Below, piece after piece: positions 12,857 to 51,113 of a DNA stretch of 55,831 bases (positions are counted from its first letter, which is position 1; every line of letters begins with the position of its first letter). Source of the stretch: Tubiluchus corallicola (Eukaryota > Animalia > Priapulida); the NCBI GenBank assembly GCA_030141605.1, contig JAQGDQ010002420.1, forward strand, positions 1 to 55,831, written 5' to 3'. The notes below the pieces were generated by a model, which had not been told where the DNA came from, did no database searches, and saw only the letters and a list, made by a program, of their open reading frames with translations. Both the position numbers and the translations under genes were made by a program.

Positions 12857-12881
12857 TTTTTTTTAAAGGGAGAAATTGACC

Positions 12882-13836
12882 ATGGATAAGCTTAGTGCAT
12901 TAAAACAACACACAGTAGTAGTCGCAGATACCGGCGACTTTGAATTAATAGCAAAATACAGCCCAGAAGACGGAACAACAAACCCTACATTGATCTACAA
13001 CGCTTCGCAATTGCCCCAATATGCTCACCTTGTGGAGAAAGCTGTCAGCATAGGAAAGAAGAGCTCCCTTTCGGGAGAAAAGCTCCTGGACTACGTCAAT
13101 GACAGGCTTGCAATACTTTTTGGTCTTGAGATATTGAATATCGTGCCGGGAAGGGTCTCAACAGAAGTTGATGCCACCCTGTCTTTCAATAGAGACGGCA
13201 CCATTGACAAGGCAAAGCAGATTATAGACCTATACAAAGAGGCAGGCGTGGATAAAGAAAGGGTGTTGATAAAGATAGCAGCCACATGGGAAGGTATAAA
13301 AGCTGCTGAACAGTTGCAGAAGGAAGGCATAGACTGCAATCTCACATTGATTTTTCACAAAATACAAGCTGTCGCGTGCGCTCAAGCTGGCGCATATCTC
13401 ATATCCCCCTTCGTAAATAGGGTTCTCAATTATTTTGAAAACTTGGGGCAGACGTTTGATGATCCCGCAAAACACCCCGGCGTGGTCTATGTGAAGGAGA
13501 TACACAACTACTATAAGAAGTTTGATCACAAAACCATAGTCATGGCAGCCTCTTTGAGGAAAGTTACAGAAGTGTCAGAGCTTGCCGGTCTTGACAGGAT
13601 GACCATACCTGTTCCTTGGAAGAGCTGCAGAATACTGAAGGCAATATGGACAGGTCATTGAGTGTTGCAGCGGCAAGGCGTCGGATGAAGAGAAGATTGA
13701 CGCTAATGAAAATAGATTCCGCTGGGATATAAATTCATGTCCTATGACATGCGACAAGCTAAGTGATGGTATAAGACTATTTGCCAAGGATTTAAGCGCT
13801 CTAAAGGGCTTCATGGCAAAGAAACTCGAGATGTAG
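12882..13836 (+). CDS. tal: Transaldolase, TalA/TalB type (two apparent frameshifts near 13613 and 13675)
   Basis: VVADTGD, TTNP, STEVD, LIKIAATWEG (Schiff-base Lys), CNLTL, ISPFV, MAASLR; shifted C-terminus FRWDIN..M.CDKLSDGIRLFAKD ending at TAG 13834-13836. Confidence 0.9.
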
Positions 13837-13850
13837 GGGTTGATATAGAG

Positions 13851-15187
13851 ATGAATAAACCAAGAATTGTGTTGTTTGCCTTAGGCAGACCTTTATTTGA
13901 TGTTGAATTTGCGGAAGCACAGGTTCGCAAAGCGTTGGAAAATTTGCAAAACTTACCCATCGAGATCGTCCAAAAAGAGGGAATTTTATTTGACGAAGCA
14001 GAAGTCGATATCGCCATCAACGAGATGGAGGACAGAGACAACATCGATGCAGTCCTCATATTGCAAGCGACATTTTCGGATGCCAGCATAACGAAGAAGA
14101 TAGCGAGCATGATCGATGCTCCGATAATACTCTGGTCATTCCCGGAACCAAGACTTGAGGACGATTGAAGACCAACAGTTTTTGCGGCGTAAATCTGGCC
14201 TGTCACGTGCTGAGCAGAGAAGGAAAAAAATACTTCTTTGTCCACGGAGATGGCAGTGACAGCTCCATACCACCGGAAATTAATGGAATAGTCAGAGGGT
14301 CTTATTCCGTCAAAAAGGTAAAAGGCGGAAAGATTTTAGCTGTGGGCGATTTTCCTGGAGGGTTTGACAGTTGTGACTATAGCGCCGAAGAGCTGGCAGA
14401 AATATTTAATATCGAGATAGTCCCCAGGGATATTGGGGGATTTTTGTCCGACGTTGCGAAGGTGCCGAATGATGACGCGAGTAGGTTTTTTAATAAAATC
14501 AAGCCCATGTACGAAAACTTGGAAGAGCACGATTTTGAAACAACTCTAAAAACTTTGAAGGTATATCTTCATACAAAGCAGATGGTGGAAAGGGAAGGTT
14601 TTTTGGGTATTGCCATGAGGTGTTGGCCGGAATTCTTCACAGAATTTGGGGCGTCAGCCTGTGGAGCTTATTCATTTTTGGGGGAAGATCTCATTCCAGC
14701 AGGTTGTGAAAGGGATGTTTTTGGAGTTCTTACGAGTCTGACCTTGCAAAATATAGGAAATGACAAGGTATTTAATACAGACATCGTGGAGGTCTCATAC
14801 ACTGACGATTCTGCAGTCTTGTGGCACTGCGGCCAAGCTCCCATATCCATGGCAAAAGAGGATAAGATAAGGGCAACACTTCACAGCAACAGGAAAAAAC
14901 CACTACTAAACGAATTCACCCTAAAGCCGGGCTACATCACCATAGCAAGGCTAAGCAGAGGAAATAACAGGTTGAAAATGATCTTAACGGGAGGCGAGAT
15001 ACTTGACCGCCCATTGCCATTCTCTGGGACCTCTGGAGTTGTGAGATTTGATAAACCGTGCAAGACGACGATAGAGTTTCTCCTGAATGAGGGGTTAGAA
15101 CATCACGTGTCGATAGTGTATGGAGATCACAAAAATGGTGTGAAAACATTTGCAAAGCTGATGGACATAGATTTGCTGGAGATATAG
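13851..15187 (+). CDS. L-fucose/L-arabinose isomerase-family protein, SqvD/SftI-like sulfoquinovose isomerase candidate; frameshift near 14158
   Basis: QATFSDA..WSFPEPR(G)GRLKTNSFCGVNL across the junction; RCWPEFF, CERD, WHCG, EHH motifs. Confidence 0.78.
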
Positions 15188-16563: not shown

Positions 16564-19115
16564 GTGTTGAAAAAAATCACCCCTATGATGCAACAATTTT
16601 TTGACATAAAGAAAGATTATCCTGACAGCATACTCTTCTTTCGCATGGGGGATTTTTATGAAATGTTTGGTGATGACGCCGTTATTGCATCCAAAATCTT
16701 GAATATTGCCCTCACCAGCCGCAATAAATCAAATGACACGGAACCGATGTGCGGCATACCGTACCACTCCTACAAATCATACCTCATTAAACTGTTGAAA
16801 GAGGGACAAAAAGTTGCCATATGCGAACAGCTGGAAAACCCAGCTGATGCCAAGGGGCTGGTAAAAAGGGGCGTCACGAGGGTCGTCACACCCTCTACTG
16901 CCATTGAGGAGGAGTTTGGCGATACGACAGAGAACAACTTCTTGATGTCTGCATATCACGATAACGGCACATTTTACATATGCTGCGCCGATGCATCCAC
17001 AGGAGACATCTATCTTCAGGAAGCAAAAGGCATTGACAAACTACAAAATATTGCAGAGCAGCTGCACATAAAGGAAGCCGCCTCCAACATAAATCTGGAC
17101 TTCTTCCCGAGCTCCATGTTGCGTATAATTAAAACCCAAGCGATCAACACGGCGTTAAGGGTTGTCTTAAATAGACTGCAAAGTACATCCATAAGGTCTC
17201 TGGGCATAGATAACGAAGGATATGTACATGCTCTTTTTCAAGTGTTTGAATACCTTGATGAAATAATGCTTGATGCGGAGTTTAAGCGCCCTGTGCTTAT
17301 CAATCCTACGGATCGCCTCGTCATAGACAGCGTTGCTGCCAGCAAATTAGAGCTTGTGACAAATAGTGACTTAGGCACCAACAACACTCTGTTTTCTGTG
17401 TTAAATTTTTGTAAAACGGGCATGGGGAGCAGACTTCTAAGGCGAAATATCCTCTACCCCCTACAGGATGCAAAAAAGATCAACAAACGATTGGATATAG
17501 TAGAAGCCCTGATAAGACACAAGAACGTGCTGCCGGAAATATCTAACATTTTGAAGAATATCCACGATATAGACAGAATTTTTGTCAGGATCAATACCAA
17601 TCGCAGCAACCCGAGGGATTTAGTTTGGCTCAAAAATTCCTTGCACAGCCTGCCTATGTTGCAGAAAATACTTGTGAATCTGGAAGAAGGGCTCCTGTCG
17701 GAGCTCACCACAAAATTTTCCAAAAGTTCACAGATTTACGAGCTTCTGGAGCAAAGCATATGCGACGAACCATCCTTAAATTTGAAGGAAGGCAATATCG
17801 TAAAGCTGGGTTATAACGCCACCGTGGATGAGCTGCGCGACATAAAGGATAATAGCCATAAAATCCTAAAGGAGATGGAGACGGACGAAAGAGAGAGCAG
17901 TGGAATAAATAACTTGCGCATAAACTACAACAAGGTGTTCGGCTACTATATAGAGGTCTCAAAGTCGAACCTTTCCAAGGTTCCGAAACATTATGAGCGG
18001 AAACAAACCTGGTAAATAACGAACGTTTCGTAACAGAAAAGTTGAAAGAGCTGGAGAGTAAAATTTTAGATGCCGAAGAGAGGCTCTATGGTGTAGAGTA
18101 CGAAATTTTTTGCAAGGTGCGGGAAGAGTTGCTCACCTTTGGCTCTCTGATCAGAGAGCTTTCTGAAAAGACGGCAGAAATAGATTTCTTTGTATCCTTG
18201 GCAAACGCGGCGTTGAAGTATAGGTACGTCCGCCCCATCGTTGATGATGATAACAAAATAAGCATCATGAAGGGACGACATCCGGTTGTAGAACACTCTG
18301 TCGAGGGGGATTTCGTATCGAATGATATCTATATGGATACGGAAGATGCTAGGCTTTTGGTTATCACAGGGCCGAACATGTCCGGCAAAAGCACATACAT
18401 ACGGATGACGGCGACGCTGGTTGTTATGAGTCATATCGGTTCGTACATTCCGGCAGATTATGCTAAAATAGGAGTTGTGGATAGGGTTTTTGCAAGGATA
18501 GGGGCTGGAGATAATCTATCCAGAGGAGAATCCACATTCATGGTTGAGATGGTTGAGGTGGCAAATATCCTGAATAATGCCACAAAAAAATCTCTGCTCA
18601 TAATGGACGAAATAGGACGGGGTACCTCTACTTATGATGGAATATCCATAGCTTTTGCGGTGTCTGAATACGTCTTGTGCAGCTTAAAGTCCAAGACTAT
18701 GTTGGCAACTCACTACCATGAGCTGACGGATCTCGTGACGGGTATTCACGGAGCTAAAAATTTGACGATCCAAGTAAAGGAGCACAACGGCAGCATAGCA
18801 TTCACAAGAAAGATAACCGAAGGAAGTGCCGATAAAAGTTATGGTATATACGTCGCCCAGCTTGCGGGGTTGCCAAAAGAGATTATAGAGAGAGCAAACG
18901 AGATATTGCATCATTTAGAATTAAATAACAGTAACAATGCCCAAAATACCAGAGTGGTGCCAAAAGAGAGAATAGTGGAACATGTACTCGTGTTTGAAGA
19001 TAGTGAAGCTGTGGAAAAGCTGAAAAACCTGGATATCAACAGCCTAACCCCCATTGAAGCGCTAAATGTTTTAAGCGAGCTAAAAGTTGTAGCAGAGAAG
19101 GAATGTGCGTCATGA
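16564..19115 (+). CDS. mutS: DNA mismatch repair protein MutS (apparent frameshift near 18010)
   Basis: TPMMQQ, FFRMGDFYE, PMCGIP; GPNMSGKST Walker A, MDEIGRGT, ATHYHEL, SYG; junction KQT(L)VNNER needs one extra base. Confidence 0.95.
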
Positions 19116-19693
19116 TAACATCTCAAGCTATTAGAGATAGTTTAAACCCGTATCTTAACGTATCTCTGTTTATCGGTGGCGTGCCGCTGTGGTTTCCTCT
19201 GATCTGCGCCATACAGCTTTACATCCAGGGCAAAGAAGGGCTATTGCCCCCTTTTATTCTCATCCTATCTATGATAATCGGGAGCAGAATGGTATTCCGC
19301 TCTCTGGTGAATGATAAAAAAATCACTCACACCGTACTTGTCACATCCCTGCAGTTTATATTCTCTATAATATTCACCTTAACTCTCACAGCACTGGTTA
19401 TCATTGGTGAACTGATTTTTTTGAGCAAAGGCACCTCCGTCGATATTATCTTGCTGATTATCGCCTACGTAGGCATCATGTATGGTTTCAAAACTCTCTT
19501 TGCATATGAAGGCAAAATGCCGCCAACCTATGGTAGACTAATAATTAGTATTGCGTGGATCGTGGTGTTTTTTAACAAAGATTACGTCATATTGTGCGCC
19601 GTATTGACCTACGTCTACAATGCATATTATATGATATATAGGGAGCATTGCACTAAGAATAGAATGTCCTTTTATTATGATGAAAAGATTTAG
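19112..19693 (+). CDS. Hypothetical polytopic membrane protein
   Basis: About six hydrophobic segments; ATGA overlap with the mutS stop. Confidence 0.6.
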   Translation: MITSQAIRDSLNPYLNVSLFIGGVPLWFPLICAIQLYIQGKEGLLPPFILILSMIIGSRMVFRSLVNDKKITHTVLVTSLQFIFSIIFTLTLTALVIIGELIFLSKGTSVDIILLIIAYVGIMYGFKTLFAYEGKMPPTYGRLIISIAWIVVFFNKDYVILCAVLTYVYNAYYMIYREHCTKNRMSFYYDEKI

Positions 19694-19721
19694 TTGACTA
19701 AATATTTTAATGCTATATAGT
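19694..19721 (+). promoter_or_regulatory. Candidate sigma70 promoter of the HU-OmpA gene
   Basis: TTGACT, 16 nt, TATAGT. Confidence 0.45.
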
Positions 19722-19776
19722 GGTATTCTTCGGGGTGTGGTTTTGCCCGGCAAAATTTTTTATGTTAAGAGGTTTT

Positions 19777-20784
19777 ATGAACAAATCTCAATTAATCGAG
19801 AGGTTATCGGAAGATACCGAGCTCACGGGAGAGCAGGTTAGCGAATTTTTAACGGCTCTGCAGGATACGATTGTGGAAACCGTCCACGATGGAGATATCG
19901 TTAAGATAAGCTCTTTTGGCACATTTGCTCCTCACAAGCTTCCGTCGAGGGTGATAAGGAGCATACAAGATGCTTCTCTGATTGTTACACCTGAAAAAGA
20001 CACGGTAAAGTTTAAGCCTGGTTCAAAGCTCAAGGAGCCATTTGCGGTTAAAGCTGTGCCTGTCAAGAGAAAGCATGTTCAGATGCCTGAAGCGTCTGAG
20101 ACGGTTGAGACGGTTCCTGCTAAAGAGAAATCGAAGAAGCCGCAGCTGATCATCGCTGTTGTTTTAGTCTTGGCCATAGGATTATTCGCTCTTAACCAAT
20201 ACATGCGGGACAAAAGCACAGGCGAGGACGCGATGGTCGTACCGGAGCCCGAAGTTGTGGTGGCAAGCGTTGAAGAAGTACCTCCGCCGATTGTGGAAGA
20301 AGTGCCGCCGGTCGTGGAGGAAACACCACCGGAACCGCCAATTGTGGAAGAAGTGCCGCCGGTCGAAGTTGAAGAGGAAATTAATATCATCGATCAGCTT
20401 TTCCTCGTGCATAATGAGCATGTCCAATCTTACATAGAGGATGATGTCTACATTATGTTGGTGTTTTTCAAGCCCTACGGCGTTGCGCTCACTTCTGACA
20501 TGAAGAGTTCTATGCAGCCAGTGATGCAGCAGATATTTGAGCATAGTGAACACATAGACAGGATAATAGTGGAAGGGCACGCGGATGCTTCCGGAGATAA
20601 AGATGAAAATATTATGCTTTCGAGCCTCCGAGCAGAGAATGCGTACTACTACATTGAGCAGTACAGTCCTCAAATTGAATTTTTCATTGAGAATAAAGGG
20701 ACTGTCGCCCCCATGGGTTCAAACGATACGACTGAGGGAAGATCTCTGAATAGAAGGGCCCAAGTGATGATATTTTTCAAGTAG
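19777..20784 (+). CDS. HU/IHF domain - TM helix - Pro/Glu/Val-rich linker - OmpA-like peptidoglycan-binding domain fusion
   Basis: MNKSQLIERLS..V.ISSFGTF..VKFKPGSKLKE (HU); LIIAVVLVLAIGLFAL (TM); VEGHAD..G....N..LS..RA and N.T.EGR.LNRR (OmpA-C). Confidence 0.85.
   Translation: MNKSQLIERLSEDTELTGEQVSEFLTALQDTIVETVHDGDIVKISSFGTFAPHKLPSRVIRSIQDASLIVTPEKDTVKFKPGSKLKEPFAVKAVPVKRKHVQMPEASETVETVPAKEKSKKPQLIIAVVLVLAIGLFALNQYMRDKSTGEDAMVVPEPEVVVASVEEVPPPIVEEVPPVVEETPPEPPIVEEVPPVEVEEEINIIDQLFLVHNEHVQSYIEDDVYIMLVFFKPYGVALTSDMKSSMQPVMQQIFEHSEHIDRIIVEGHADASGDKDENIMLSSLRAENAYYYIEQYSPQIEFFIENKGTVAPMGSNDTTEGRSLNRRAQVMIFFK
20290..20365 (+). repeat. Intragenic 25-nt direct repeat encoding IVEEVPPV
   Basis: ATTGTGGAAGAAGTGCCGCCGGTCG at 20290-20314 and 20341-20365. 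Confidence 0.9.
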
Positions 20785-20884
20785 TGATTCTGTTTATAGG
20801 TGTGCTGCTTGCGGCTAGCTTTAGCAGCTTCCTTTTAATAGGATTGGCAAGAGAGTTCATTTAAAAAGTTTAGAGAATTTGTCG

Positions 20885-20911
20885 AAGCCCCCGGATTTTC
20901 GGGGGCTTTTT
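20885..20911 (+). terminator. Intrinsic terminator
   Basis: AAGCCCCCG-gatttt-CGGGGGCTT then T-run; lies between convergent genes. Confidence 0.85.
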
Positions 20912-20950
20912 ATGTGGGGCAAGTGTTGCCTTGTGTACTTTATGCACATA

Positions 20951-21682
20951 TCATTTCCAGGCCTTGACAAAGTATCTGCCGGCTAAAGAGCTGTCCCTCA
21001 GGTCTTCCTCTCCGTCGATTATCTGTATATTTTTGAACCCTCCCTGAAGGAGGAGGTCATGTATAGTTTCTTTGCTATAGGCCCTTTCAAACACGACGGA
21101 ACTATTCCTTTCCCAGCATTTTTCATCAATCGGATTAAATACCGTTACTTCATAACGCGCGATCTTGTTGAGCTTATTGTAGGAAAATGACACGATACTC
21201 ACCACATCATCTTCAACAAACGTGAGGTCTTTATCATCGTCGCTGTCATATGCGCTCTCTTCATTCGCATCAAAGAAGATAACCCCGTTATCCTTGAGAT
21301 TGAAGTATGCATTCTCAAATACCTGTAGCATATCCCTATTATCCGTAAAATGGTTTACACTGTCAAACATGCATATAATGGCATCGTAGGTCTCTTTTCT
21401 ATGAAAAGCGAGGACGTCACTATGCACAAAGCACCCGCCCTTAACATTTTCTTTAGCAAACTGCAACATGGCTTTTGAGTTATCCACACCGGTAACGTCA
21501 AATCCATCCTCGCTCAAGAGCTTGCAAATATCCCCGGTGCCGCAGCACATATCCAGTATTTTGCCATTTTTCCGAATATCCCTTAAAAAAAGATTCTGCA
21601 TAATGCCGTAAAACTTTTCAGGAACGTCCAAAGTCCAATGTCTGCTATACACATCCGCAAATATATCGTAAGGAGATTTCAT
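20951..21682 (-). CDS. Class I SAM-dependent methyltransferase
   Basis: ILDMCCGTG, GVDNS..ML, FDSVNH motifs. Confidence 0.88.
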   Translation of the reverse strand: MKSPYDIFADVYSRHWTLDVPEKFYGIMQNLFLRDIRKNGKILDMCCGTGDICKLLSEDGFDVTGVDNSKAMLQFAKENVKGGCFVHSDVLAFHRKETYDAIICMFDSVNHFTDNRDMLQVFENAYFNLKDNGVIFFDANEESAYDSDDDKDLTFVEDDVVSIVSFSYNKLNKIARYEVTVFNPIDEKCWERNSSVVFERAYSKETIHDLLLQGGFKNIQIIDGEEDLRDSSLAGRYFVKAWK

Positions 21683-21779: not shown

Positions 21780-22522
21780 TTGAAGAATATACCAATACTT
21801 TTATCAAAGATCCAAGGCCCTGCAAACTTAGGTTTGATAATGCGAGCGATGGCGAATACGGGCTTTAAGGAAGTTCGGTTCACTGGTGAGTTGAACGGAG
21901 ACGAGTTTGATGTCAAGCGATATGCCTTGAAAAGCTCGGCGATGACAGTTGTTAAGAAGATGCCTTCCTCGCAGAAATGACTTCGGATCTACACACGGTG
22001 GTGGGTCTTACTACAAAAACCCCGTGGATGGACAATAAAAACGTTCTTTACAGCGATTTTGTCAATCTGGTAAGGGATGAGATGAGTGCGGGGAAAAGAG
22101 TCGGTCTTCTATTCGGAAACGAAGAAGCCGGACTCTCAAACTCAGAACTGGCCAGATGCACGTACAGATTATCGCTGCCAACAAATAAATCCTTCACAAG
22201 CCTAAACATCGCCCAAGCAGCCATGATAGTTATGTGGCAAATTCACACCAATCTTCTCGATAAGGACGATCTGAATATTGATGCAAAAGTAGAAATAGCG
22301 ACCAATAAAAATAAAGAGCTGCTCTTAGGCAAATTGCAGGACTTGTTAATAACCATAAACTATCTAAAAGCCCAAAATAGAGAGCGGATGTGGGAAGAAA
22401 TGCTTAACGCACTTCAACACAAAAGCATAAATGAAAGAGAGCTAAACATATGTACAGGCATGATATCCAAGTGTCTGGCGTACATAGAAAGCTTGAAGGA
22501 AGATATCAAACATGGAAAATGA
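21780..22522 (+). CDS. trmJ: SPOUT RNA methyltransferase, TrmJ/TrmH family (frameshift near 21965)
   Basis: NLGLIMRAMANTG; LLFGNEEAGLSN; SLNIAQA. Confidence 0.75.
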
Positions 22523-49299: not shown

Positions 49300-49601
49300 C
49301 CACAACCCCCTTAAAGACACTCACCACTTAACTAATTAAGTAGACAATCCAAAGAGACTATTGTCAACAATTTTTCACATGTGGCAGAAAATTGCATAAT
49401 CGATCACCACTCGGCATTGACGCGCATATAATACGCAATCGCACAAAAACTGAAACTAAACTAAATATTTGCTGAAAACACAACGATAATCTGGACCAAC
49501 TTGACGCAAAATGAGGTGTATGAAGATATACATGAAGATGGCTCGTGCGAAGAAAAACTGCAAAACACAGCCCTTCTCACACAAGCCAGCCTAGTTCGAG
49601 A

Positions 49602-50012
49602 TTATTCATCACACATCATATATAAGCTCCTGTTAGAAGGACTATAGCTACCAACATAAACCTCATACCCATCAGTCGTACAACCTTCACGACTAGCTTG
49701 CAGATAATAAGTGCCAGAATATAAGCTAGTAAACATATAACGCCCAAGATCGTCTGTGATACCCTCCCTGATGACTTCACCACCAGACAAAAGTTCCACT
49801 TTCGCCCCCTCAATCAACCCAACATACGACCCTGGTGCAACAATTTGCATTACGTAACCAAAAAGAGCATAATTTCCACCATCTCCGCCATCAATAGGTG
49901 GAAGAGTGCCACCTCCGCCATCAACAACACCGCCATCACCAGACGAACCGCATGACACCAAACCAAAAATAAGCAGAACCGCAAAGACCTTCAAAATCCA
50001 GATCTTCTTCAT
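49602..50012 (-). CDS. Lipoprotein with Gly-rich linker and carboxypeptidase-regulatory-like beta domain (copy 1)
   Basis: GGAGG RBS; LVSC lipobox; GAKVEL..TDDLGRY.F..L..GTY.L.AS. Confidence 0.8.
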   Translation of the reverse strand: MKKIWILKVFAVLLIFGLVSCGSSGDGGVVDGGGGTLPPIDGGDGGNYALFGYVMQIVAPGSYVGLIEGAKVELLSGGEVIREGITDDLGRYMFTSLYSGTYYLQASREGCTTDGYEVYVGSYSPSNRSLYMMCDE

Positions 50013-50221
50013 GAAACAATGCCTCCACATGATTGACCGTAACAAACTGTTAAACGGCAGCATAGTTTTGCAGAATATAACAGCGACACCGATAGATAAT
50101 AAGTATTACTTACGCCCACCATGGACGGTATTTATAATAATCACCACCCAATTATAGCGCCGCTGCAAATAACAATGCACCAAAACACAGCCCTTCTCAC
50201 ACAAGCCAGCCTAGTTCGAGA

Positions 50222-50611
50222 TTATTGAATACACTCTAGAGGTAGAGGAAGGCCACTGAGACTTTGGACAACTGGAAATGCACTTTCATAAGTCGTACAA
50301 CCTTCCGCACTAACTCTCAGAGTATAAACGTCAGACTCTAGATTAGAGAGCATATAACTCCCATCACTTTCTGAGATAGACAAACTGACAACTTTATCAC
50401 CAGACAAAAGTTCCACTCTCGCACCAGAAATCGCCCCAATAAGATCACCTGTAACAGCATCAACTCCTGCTACCTTGCCAGAAATGGAATACCCACTTCC
50501 GCCACCACCAGGTGGAAGAGTACCACCTCCGCCATCACCAGACGAACCGCATGACACCAAACCAAAAATAAGCAGAACCGCAAAGACCTTCAAAATCCAA
50601 ACCTTCTTCAT
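50222..50611 (-). CDS. Lipoprotein with Gly-rich linker and carboxypeptidase-regulatory-like beta domain (copy 2)
   Basis: GGAGG RBS; LVSC lipobox; ISGKV..ISGARVEL..SDGSY.L..L...YTL.VS. Confidence 0.8.
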   Translation of the reverse strand: MKKVWILKVFAVLLIFGLVSCGSSGDGGGGTLPPGGGGSGYSISGKVAGVDAVTGDLIGAISGARVELLSGDKVVSLSISESDGSYMLSNLESDVYTLRVSAEGCTTYESAFPVVQSLSGLPLPLECIQ

Positions 50612-51113
50612 AAAACAATACCTCCATTTAATTGACCGTAACAAACTGTTAAACAGCAGCATAATTTTGCAAAATATAGCAGCAATACATAAGAATATAA
50701 CAGTGATACCAATAGGCGATAAGCATTCTATAGCCCACCATAGAAGACACTTACAATAATCACAACTCCGCGATGGTGCCGTTGCAAACAACAATACACC
50801 ATACGCATACCCCCACAATTAAATTACTGTAACAGTACGATGTTATTATGCATATTTTTACACACATGTCTATTCCAATCTGTATGCATTTTGTACACAC
50901 AATACTGTCATCGATTTGCAAGCCTTAGAAAGCGATATTTTTGTAATCAACGGGTCACACTTAAGGTGATGTGTAATTTACAACACTAGGTTGTGTATAA
51001 AACAAGCAAGGGGTTGTGCAAAAGTTGTTAAAAGAAACTTACCACAGCAGATATTGCGGTTAAGAATTGCCTTAGCAAAGGCAGTTATGAAAGTGCGGTT
51101 ACCAAAAACACTC

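Follow-up and report, generated by a model that had tools for sequence, protein, structure and literature searches.

The window analysed here, the whole 55,831-nucleotide stretch of DNA, contains a gene for a 335-residue protein, P0001, in which an HU/IHF domain is joined through a linker, a predicted transmembrane (TM) helix and an acidic stalk to an OmpA C-terminal (OmpA-C) domain, and this HU-OmpA fusion is real. The reading that P0001 is a wall-fixed anchor with a loose hold on the nucleoid, its HU domain probably pairing with a second copy of itself or with free HU, is given about an even chance. The features of the locus are the following:

19694..19721, + strand: sigma-70-like promoter match, TTGACT-16-TATAGT, 10/12 (pattern scan; a lead only)
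19766..19773, + strand: Shine-Dalgarno-like motif ahead of ATG 19777 (sequence)
19777..20784, + strand: ORF P0001, HU-linker-TM-stalk-OmpA-C, 335 aa (stop-free frame, Pfam, contigs)
19777..20043, + strand: HU/IHF domain, residues 1-89, full-length arm, core kept (Pfam, alignment)
20044..20145, + strand: putative cytoplasmic linker, residues 90-123, two lysine-rich clusters (composition; GC3 0.53)
20146..20202, + strand: predicted single TM helix, residues 124-142 (hydropathy; topology inferred)
20203..20385, + strand: acidic Pro/Glu/Val stalk, residues 143-203 (composition, repeat)
20386..20781, + strand: OmpA-C domain of the peptidoglycan-binding type, residues 204-335; a beta hairpin is added at its N-terminus (Pfam, model, alignment)
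20584-20586, + strand: D270, diaminopimelate-binding residue kept
20629-20631, + strand: R285, diaminopimelate-binding residue kept
20884..20909, + strand: 11-bp GC-rich hairpin followed by U, terminator-like (folding energy vs shuffles)

Reading frame and gene context

The first-pass annotation had described a single uninterrupted ORF joining an HU domain, a basic stretch, a TM helix, a stalk and an OmpA domain, and the stop-free frame and the Pfam matches agree with it; by frame count, the other two forward frames across 19777-20784 carry 20 and 28 stops. The ATG at 19777, whose codon coincides with residue 1 of the HU profile, is favoured over a longer alternative GTG start at 19720 because a Shine-Dalgarno-like motif precedes the ATG, whereas the GTG sits inside the promoter-like -10 box. 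The promoter match is the best of 5 in a region where 4.8 are expected by chance. The terminator-like hairpin between the P0001 gene and a convergent methyltransferase gene (-19.8 kcal/mol, z -2.7, 2/200 shuffles equally good) was missed by the pattern scan. Together, the promoter-like and terminator-like elements suggest that the gene may form a lone transcript.

Directly upstream, a 196-aa very hydrophobic multi-pass membrane ORF (19103-19693) overlaps the end of mutS. Elsewhere, reading of the translations points to several clusters of TRAP-type transporters and to genes of sugar catabolism, and the window also holds a tandem duplication at 49561-50801 (period about 600-620 nt, 72-94% identity) with two paralogous lipoprotein-like ORFs carrying glycine-rich linkers. 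The N-terminal part of the window's MutS reached at most 39% identity over its full length in the 35 genomes tested, 29 of which gave a match, and the lineage of the window is distant from all genomes tested.

Assembly support for the fusion

The first-pass annotation had pointed to read support over the junctions as a check on the fusion, and same-sample contigs bridge every junction, with the ORF intact in run X1. The X1 contigs span 19300-19938 and 19918-21300 with 0 differences from the window; the second, 2635 nt long, runs from 19918 to beyond the stop and bridges the HU end, the TM helix, the stalk and the OmpA domain. The contigs of run X2 span 19834-20403 and 20377-20867 and agree over the HU-TM-stalk junctions, with one discrepancy: at 19914, where the depth is about 5, a T4 run is one nucleotide short. 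This loss is absent from X1 and would cut the HU domain within the conserved FGTF turn (invariant F47-G48) and not at a junction. No joint, loose end or indel lies at any junction of the ORF in the X1 and X2 contigs, which represent one sample, possibly the window's own source, and therefore do not amount to independent support.

An artefactual fusion of two genes by indel or misjoin would have precedents in the window, where contigs restore bases at 13615, 13669, 14156, 18009 and 21966, and would be in keeping with the X2 loss at 19914. It is nevertheless considered very improbable, as the 2635-nt X1 contig is identical to the window within the ORF from 19918 through the stop, and the X2 contigs match over the HU-TM-stalk junctions with the 19914 loss internal to the HU domain.

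The apparent split of mutS (16564-19115) is an assembly indel, the base being restored at 18009 by same-sample contigs; the transaldolase-like gene and the adjoining sugar-isomerase-like gene (12876-13661 and 13851-15187) likewise look cut through assembly indels and are not pseudogenes. The base that same-sample contigs insert at 21966 marks a further assembly indel.

Predicted membrane helix, stalk and probable wall-binding domain

The C-terminal half of P0001 carries the better supported part of the proposed link between DNA and wall. The domain at 204-335 was matched by Pfam OmpA (PF00691) at residues 230-326 (E 7.9e-8, 33 bits vs a cut-off of 27.2) and modelled from 36 aligned sequences with a pLDDT of 93.1; the top Foldseek matches of the model were PA0833, YfiB, AbOmpA, MotB and T6SS anchors (TM-scores of about 0.7-0.8, E 2e-10), and the best ESM Atlas match, at 0.82, fell in OmpA clusters. 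An ESM Atlas search with residues 1-205 gave no usable match. Among the 36 aligned sequences R285 is invariant and D270 is at least 90% conserved; in AbOmpA, according to the available part of PMC5974059, Asp271 and Arg286 bind diaminopimelate, and this D271/R286 pair is 15 residues apart, as is D270/R285. The OmpA/MotB type first assigned to this domain is thus upheld by Pfam, the pLDDT of 93, the fold matches and the D270/R285 pair, and on the model and the alignment the domain likely binds peptidoglycan.

Between the HU and OmpA-C domains, the 34-residue linker (90-123) contains 8 K/R and 4 D/E. The basic stretch described by the first-pass annotation is therefore present, but it amounts only to net +4 and is divided into two clusters. 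One hydrophobic 19-mer follows at 124-142 (Kyte-Doolittle 2.35, no charged residue), in line with the single TM helix noted before, and an N-in/C-out topology is inferred from the positive-inside rule because four Lys lie directly N-terminal to the helix. The 61-residue stalk (143-203) comprises 18 D/E, 13 P and 2 K/R and is built in part of a 31-nt direct repeat of 97% identity (20284-20314 and 20335-20365), so that its earlier description as an acidic Pro/Glu/Val repeat was accurate; by general polypeptide dimensions, a stalk of this size would measure at most about 20 nm when extended. That the cell is diderm, with a periplasm, is suggested by a LapB-like gene of the window (match below cut-off).

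The same layout could belong to a subunit of a larger membrane machine of the MotB, ZorB or TssL type (stator, defence or secretion anchor) that has acquired an HU head, a possibility to which very little weight is given. The OmpA domain does match the models of these proteins, weakly and far below the cut-off where one exists, and the 196-aa multi-pass membrane ORF is situated upstream. However, no family in Pfam, NCBIfam, PHROGs or PADLOC matches that ORF, which is not a recognisable MotA, ZorA or ExbB, and no secretion or flagellar genes flank the P0001 gene, which is suggested to be a lone transcript. The TM helix of MotB carries a conserved Asp, whereas the segment 124-142 has no D/E. Two specific identities were rejected: TssL-long/TagL, since the match reached 38.9 bits vs 139.8 over the OmpA part only, with no DotU head and no T6SS genes among the scanned neighbours; and MotB/ZorB, given the TM helix without Asp and the upstream neighbour matching no MotA/ZorA family. 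Overall, NCBIfam models scored 20-48 bits on P0001 vs cut-offs of 125-700.

The HU domain

The N-terminal domain was matched by Pfam Bac_DNA_binding (PF00216) at 1-88 of 90 profile positions (E 5.8e-21, 75 bits vs a cut-off of 22.4). It was compared with 132 free HUs (133 domains including the query) that were found by searches with P0001 and are biased towards it. Residues 1-88 align to these free HUs without gaps, with at most 41% identity to any of them, and P0001 retains the core, the FGTF turn, R58, R61, K80 and K86, together with 17 of the 23 positions conserved in at least 80% of the 132, a comparison that favours kept positions because the references were picked by likeness to the query. 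The clasp (48-89) has 42 residues with 8 basic ones, and the arm is not shortened.

Much of the basic surface is gone. Eight of the 14 usually basic positions are lost (K13, K18, K19, K23, R55, K/R64, K75 and K83), the substitutions including P63I, R55L, K18G and K83S. The net charge of the domain is -3, against a reference mean of +4.9 (SD 3.1; 1/132 references as low), and that of the helical body (residues 1-47) is -7 (2/132 as low). As had been reported for the arm tip, the motif reads RSIQ (R61-S62-I63-Q64), which is shared with a free 89-aa HU, P0138; position 63 is Pro in 99/132 references and Ile in 3, with Pro63 absent from 33/132. In E. coli, as given in the available part of bioRxiv 2021.06.17.448862, HU K3, K18 and K83 are needed for chromosome association, and the HU-alpha P63A substitution abolishes structure-specific binding while co-localisation with the chromosome stays. 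P0001 keeps only K3 of these three lysines (G18, S83), with K84 adjoining position 83. Own DNA binding by the P0001 HU domain is probably weak, since 8/14 basic positions and the intercalating proline are lost and the net charge is -3; we read it as a folded domain whose DNA contact would be weakened and non-bending.

HU-family proteins bind DNA as an intertwined dimer. The complex prediction for two copies of the P0001 HU domain scored 0.35 vs a mark of 0.42, which speaks neither for nor against a dimer, and a single-sequence fold of the whole of P0001 had a pLDDT of 37.6, too low to be usable. P0001 is the sole HU ORF in the window, with no adjoining free HU gene.

The loss of charge also opens the leading alternative, a RodZ-like reading, unlikely in our assessment, in which the HU fold would no longer bind DNA and would serve as a dimerisation or docking module tying to the wall a cytoplasmic protein with a role in the cytoskeleton, in division or in polarity. 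RodZ, a 337-aa protein in the available part of PMC6946637, has an HTH at 1-84, a basic linker at 85-111 and a TM helix at 112-133, nearly the same layout as P0001; DNA is not bound by its HTH, which interacts with MreB and with itself. The acidic helical body (net -7, 1-47) and the loss of K18, K83, R55 and P63 are consistent with this reading, as are the protein binding that Burroughs 2017 proposes for two-HU forms (available part of PMC5499826) and the existence of other cytoplasmic heads on TM-stalk-OmpA modules, e.g., the AAA_22 ATPase in P0100. On the other hand, the arm is full length, the clasp retains 8 basic residues including R58, R61, K80 and K86, and no cytoskeletal or division partner gene adjoins.

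Relatives and origin of the fusion

The domain-architecture search named as a check in the first-pass annotation found HU and OmpA together in no other protein among the collections searched, and P0001 is known from one genome. One protein search gave 1 match from 6286 candidates, to OmpA only; in a second, the best 150 of 2827 matches comprised 15 with HU only, 135 with OmpA only and 0 with both; and in a third, the best 120 of 850 consisted entirely of free HUs no longer than 142 aa. Among 7989 candidates, 5 HU proteins of 250-2000 aa were found, 0 with OmpA, which is weak evidence. Locus scans of the best 80 of 371 and the best 80 of 315 gave 0/160 with both domains in one frame, and no match in 38 plasmid records or 10 phage records covers 80% of P0001. 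When 791 genomes from four phyla were searched at a limit of E 1e-9, 46 had a match and 0 had one spanning both domains; this search scored only some candidates per genome and would hide weaker fused relatives. Of the 6 frames matching OmpA, 4 were extracted, as were 2 long HU frames, and none of these is a fusion.

The nearest C-terminal relative, P0029 (212 aa), shares 29% identity with P0001 over 178 aa (E 1e-16, among the best 150 of 2827). P0029 and similar proteins (P0096, P0045) resemble P0001 in having a TM helix after a lysine cluster, a Pro/Glu stalk and an OmpA-C domain with the extra hairpin, and differ from it in lacking HU. A canonical HU was likely grafted onto an existing TM-stalk-OmpA protein; the addition of HU to an existing anchor is suggested because P0029 is such a protein without HU.

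Several other arrangements of these domains were observed. In P0100 (528 aa) a different cytoplasmic head, an AAA_22 ATPase, is carried by the same kind of anchor, made up of a TM-like segment, an acidic stalk and OmpA-C. At L101:652-2656, a free HU ends about 40 nt before a same-strand gene for a signal-peptide OmpA-domain protein, the two adjoining and unfused. P0273 (706 aa), a single member, has an N-terminal HU joined to a long region that matches WYL weakly, under the cut-off. In the P0271 cluster (Anaerococcus by member names), a SurA-like lipoprotein is read through into a downstream HU in 8/15 listed members (422 aa vs 302 aa), probably a stop-loss polymorphism.

The fusion might also be young and lineage-restricted, the HU domain being a passenger and the working part a TM-stalk-OmpA clamp between the inner membrane and the wall, which we regard as quite improbable. 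P0001 is a singleton in all searches, P0029 carries the TM helix, stalk, extra hairpin and OmpA-C without HU, stop-loss HU fusions do occur (the SurA-HU read-throughs), the HU branch is long (1.36 vs a median of 0.53) and an in-frame Met102 stands ahead of the TM helix. The changes in the HU domain are, however, non-random, with the core retained and the losses at surface lysines and the arm; the linker is coding-like (GC 0.51, GC3 0.53 vs 0.33 in the upstream spacer), and no clear Shine-Dalgarno motif precedes Met102.

Proposed function

As an anchor, P0001 would sit in the inner membrane by its predicted single helix, with the HU end cytoplasmic and the stalk and OmpA-C periplasmic; the 61-residue stalk would span the gap to the wall, and OmpA-C would hold peptidoglycan via mDAP through D270/R285. 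The HU part would dimerise, either with a second copy of itself or, with greater likelihood, with free HU or IHF, and would make weak non-specific contact with DNA through R58, R61, K78, K80, K86 and the basic linker. Little DNA bending would be expected because P63 is lost. The protein might be used in nucleoid positioning or segregation.

This anchor reading is supported by the recurrence of the layout with LysM or SPOR (P0274, L162, L194, L197) and by the 8 basic residues kept in the clasp, together with the continued chromosome co-localisation of E. coli HU P63A in the available part of bioRxiv 2021.06.17.448862. It is weakened by the absence of 8/14 basic positions, K18 and K83 among them, the net charge of -3, and the finding of neither a neighbouring free HU gene nor a second example. 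The link between DNA and wall across the inner membrane that was first proposed therefore stands well on the wall side (D270/R285, fold), whereas direct DNA tethering is less secure in view of the charge loss, P63I and the RodZ precedent. A more specific proposal is held tentatively and as somewhat unlikely: that P0001 is an independently evolved one-gene chromosome-wall tether, a classical HU on a TM-stalk-OmpA anchor, that would have converged on the HU-TM-LysM/SPOR design of Bacteroidota and would capture the nucleoid via a heterodimer with free HU.

How the chromosome is attached to the envelope is an open question in most bacteria, and a third, well-understood wall-binding domain suggests that the design arose more than once. 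P0001 offers one small gene with residues that could be mutated on either side of the membrane, D270/R285 at the wall end and R58/R61/K80/K86 at the HU end; its weight is limited by its occurrence in one genome.

Comparison with known systems

With canonical HU/IHF (PF00216; E. coli HU-alpha), P0001 shares the gapless alignment of 1-88, the core, the FGTF turn, R58, R61, K80 and K86; it differs in its acidic body, P63I, the fusion to a membrane anchor and an identity of at most 41%. With the OmpA-C family (PA0833, AbOmpA, YfiB, Pal, MotB, TssL-long/TagL) it shares the fold and the Asp/Arg pair, whereas P0001 is without a beta-barrel, lipobox, TM aspartate, and motor or T6SS neighbours. MotB and TssL/TagL are anchored in the inner membrane by a TM helix and stalk, a layout like that of P0001. 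RodZ, as presented in the available part of PMC6946637, is likewise a bitopic protein of about 335 aa with a DNA-binding-type fold, a basic juxtamembrane linker, a TM helix and a periplasmic part, but its head is an Xre HTH and not HU and it lacks OmpA-C; no homology is implied.

The closest design was noted computationally by Burroughs 2017, who, in the available part of PMC5499826, proposed bacterial HU-disordered-TM-LysM/SPOR proteins as nucleoid-envelope tethers; the first-pass annotation had mentioned related HU-TM-LysM/SPOR architectures, mainly in Bacteroidetes. It knew of no functional characterisation, and searches of the open-licence PMC/bioRxiv literature likewise found no follow-up of the 2017 proposal, which is still a prediction, and no HU-OmpA fusion; the term 'OmpA' has 0 occurrences in the main text of PMC5499826. 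The known design was also recovered with other wall binders in our searches, namely as HU-TM-LysM in P0274, as an HU plus HU-TM-LysM pair in L162 (LysM match below cut-off), and as HU plus HU-TM forms in L194 and L197, with tails that are SPOR-like by sequence reading and not by scan. The L162 locus (L162:2845-4088, genome G004, outside Bacteroidota) encodes a free divergent HU overlapping an HU-TM-Pro-rich stalk-LysM-like protein; a search of 300 further genomes from the same phylum gave no full-length relative among its best 150 matches.

The HU tree (50 rows, 91 columns) includes only four fused comparators because the P0290 searches found no more single-HU LysM forms (0/21 and 0/61 genomes at strict limits). 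In this tree P0274 and L162 group at 96/96, whereas P0001 falls among canonical HUs on its long branch, away from the LysM forms and in a group (90/94) that is not starred; AU tests on the 91 columns did not reject a single clade of P0001 and the LysM forms (p 0.257 and 0.354). An independent origin of P0001 is at most suggested.

As described in the available part of PMC5499826, the bacterial HU-CCDC81 group shares with P0001 an N-terminal HU, one TM helix, a low-complexity spacer, a periplasmic peptidoglycan-binding domain and a fast-evolving HU. Where proteins of that group end in LysM, SPOR or a small disordered tail, P0001 ends in OmpA-C; P0001 moreover has a short 34-aa cytoplasmic linker and a long acidic stretch that would be periplasmic. 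The clasp of the group is shortened, with about 2.8 basic residues (8.1 in classical HU, on segment limits that may differ from 48-89), whereas the clasp of P0001 is full-length with 8 K/R, compared with 5, 4, 2 and 2 in the four fused HU-TM-LysM/SPOR comparators. Single-HU forms of the group typically come with an operonic stand-alone HU (seen in L162, L194 and L197), and P0001 does not. The best HU-CCDC81 Pfam model on P0001, PF18174, scored 13.7 bits vs 26, in a weak test, as P0274 and L162, which are genuine single-HU LysM forms, stay under the cut-offs too (19.5 and 15.7 vs 35). Because it differs in its C-terminal domain, in the length and charge of its clasp and in lacking an operon partner, P0001 is not filed as an HU-CCDC81 member; it is apparently an undescribed variant of the predicted tether design, possibly a convergent one.
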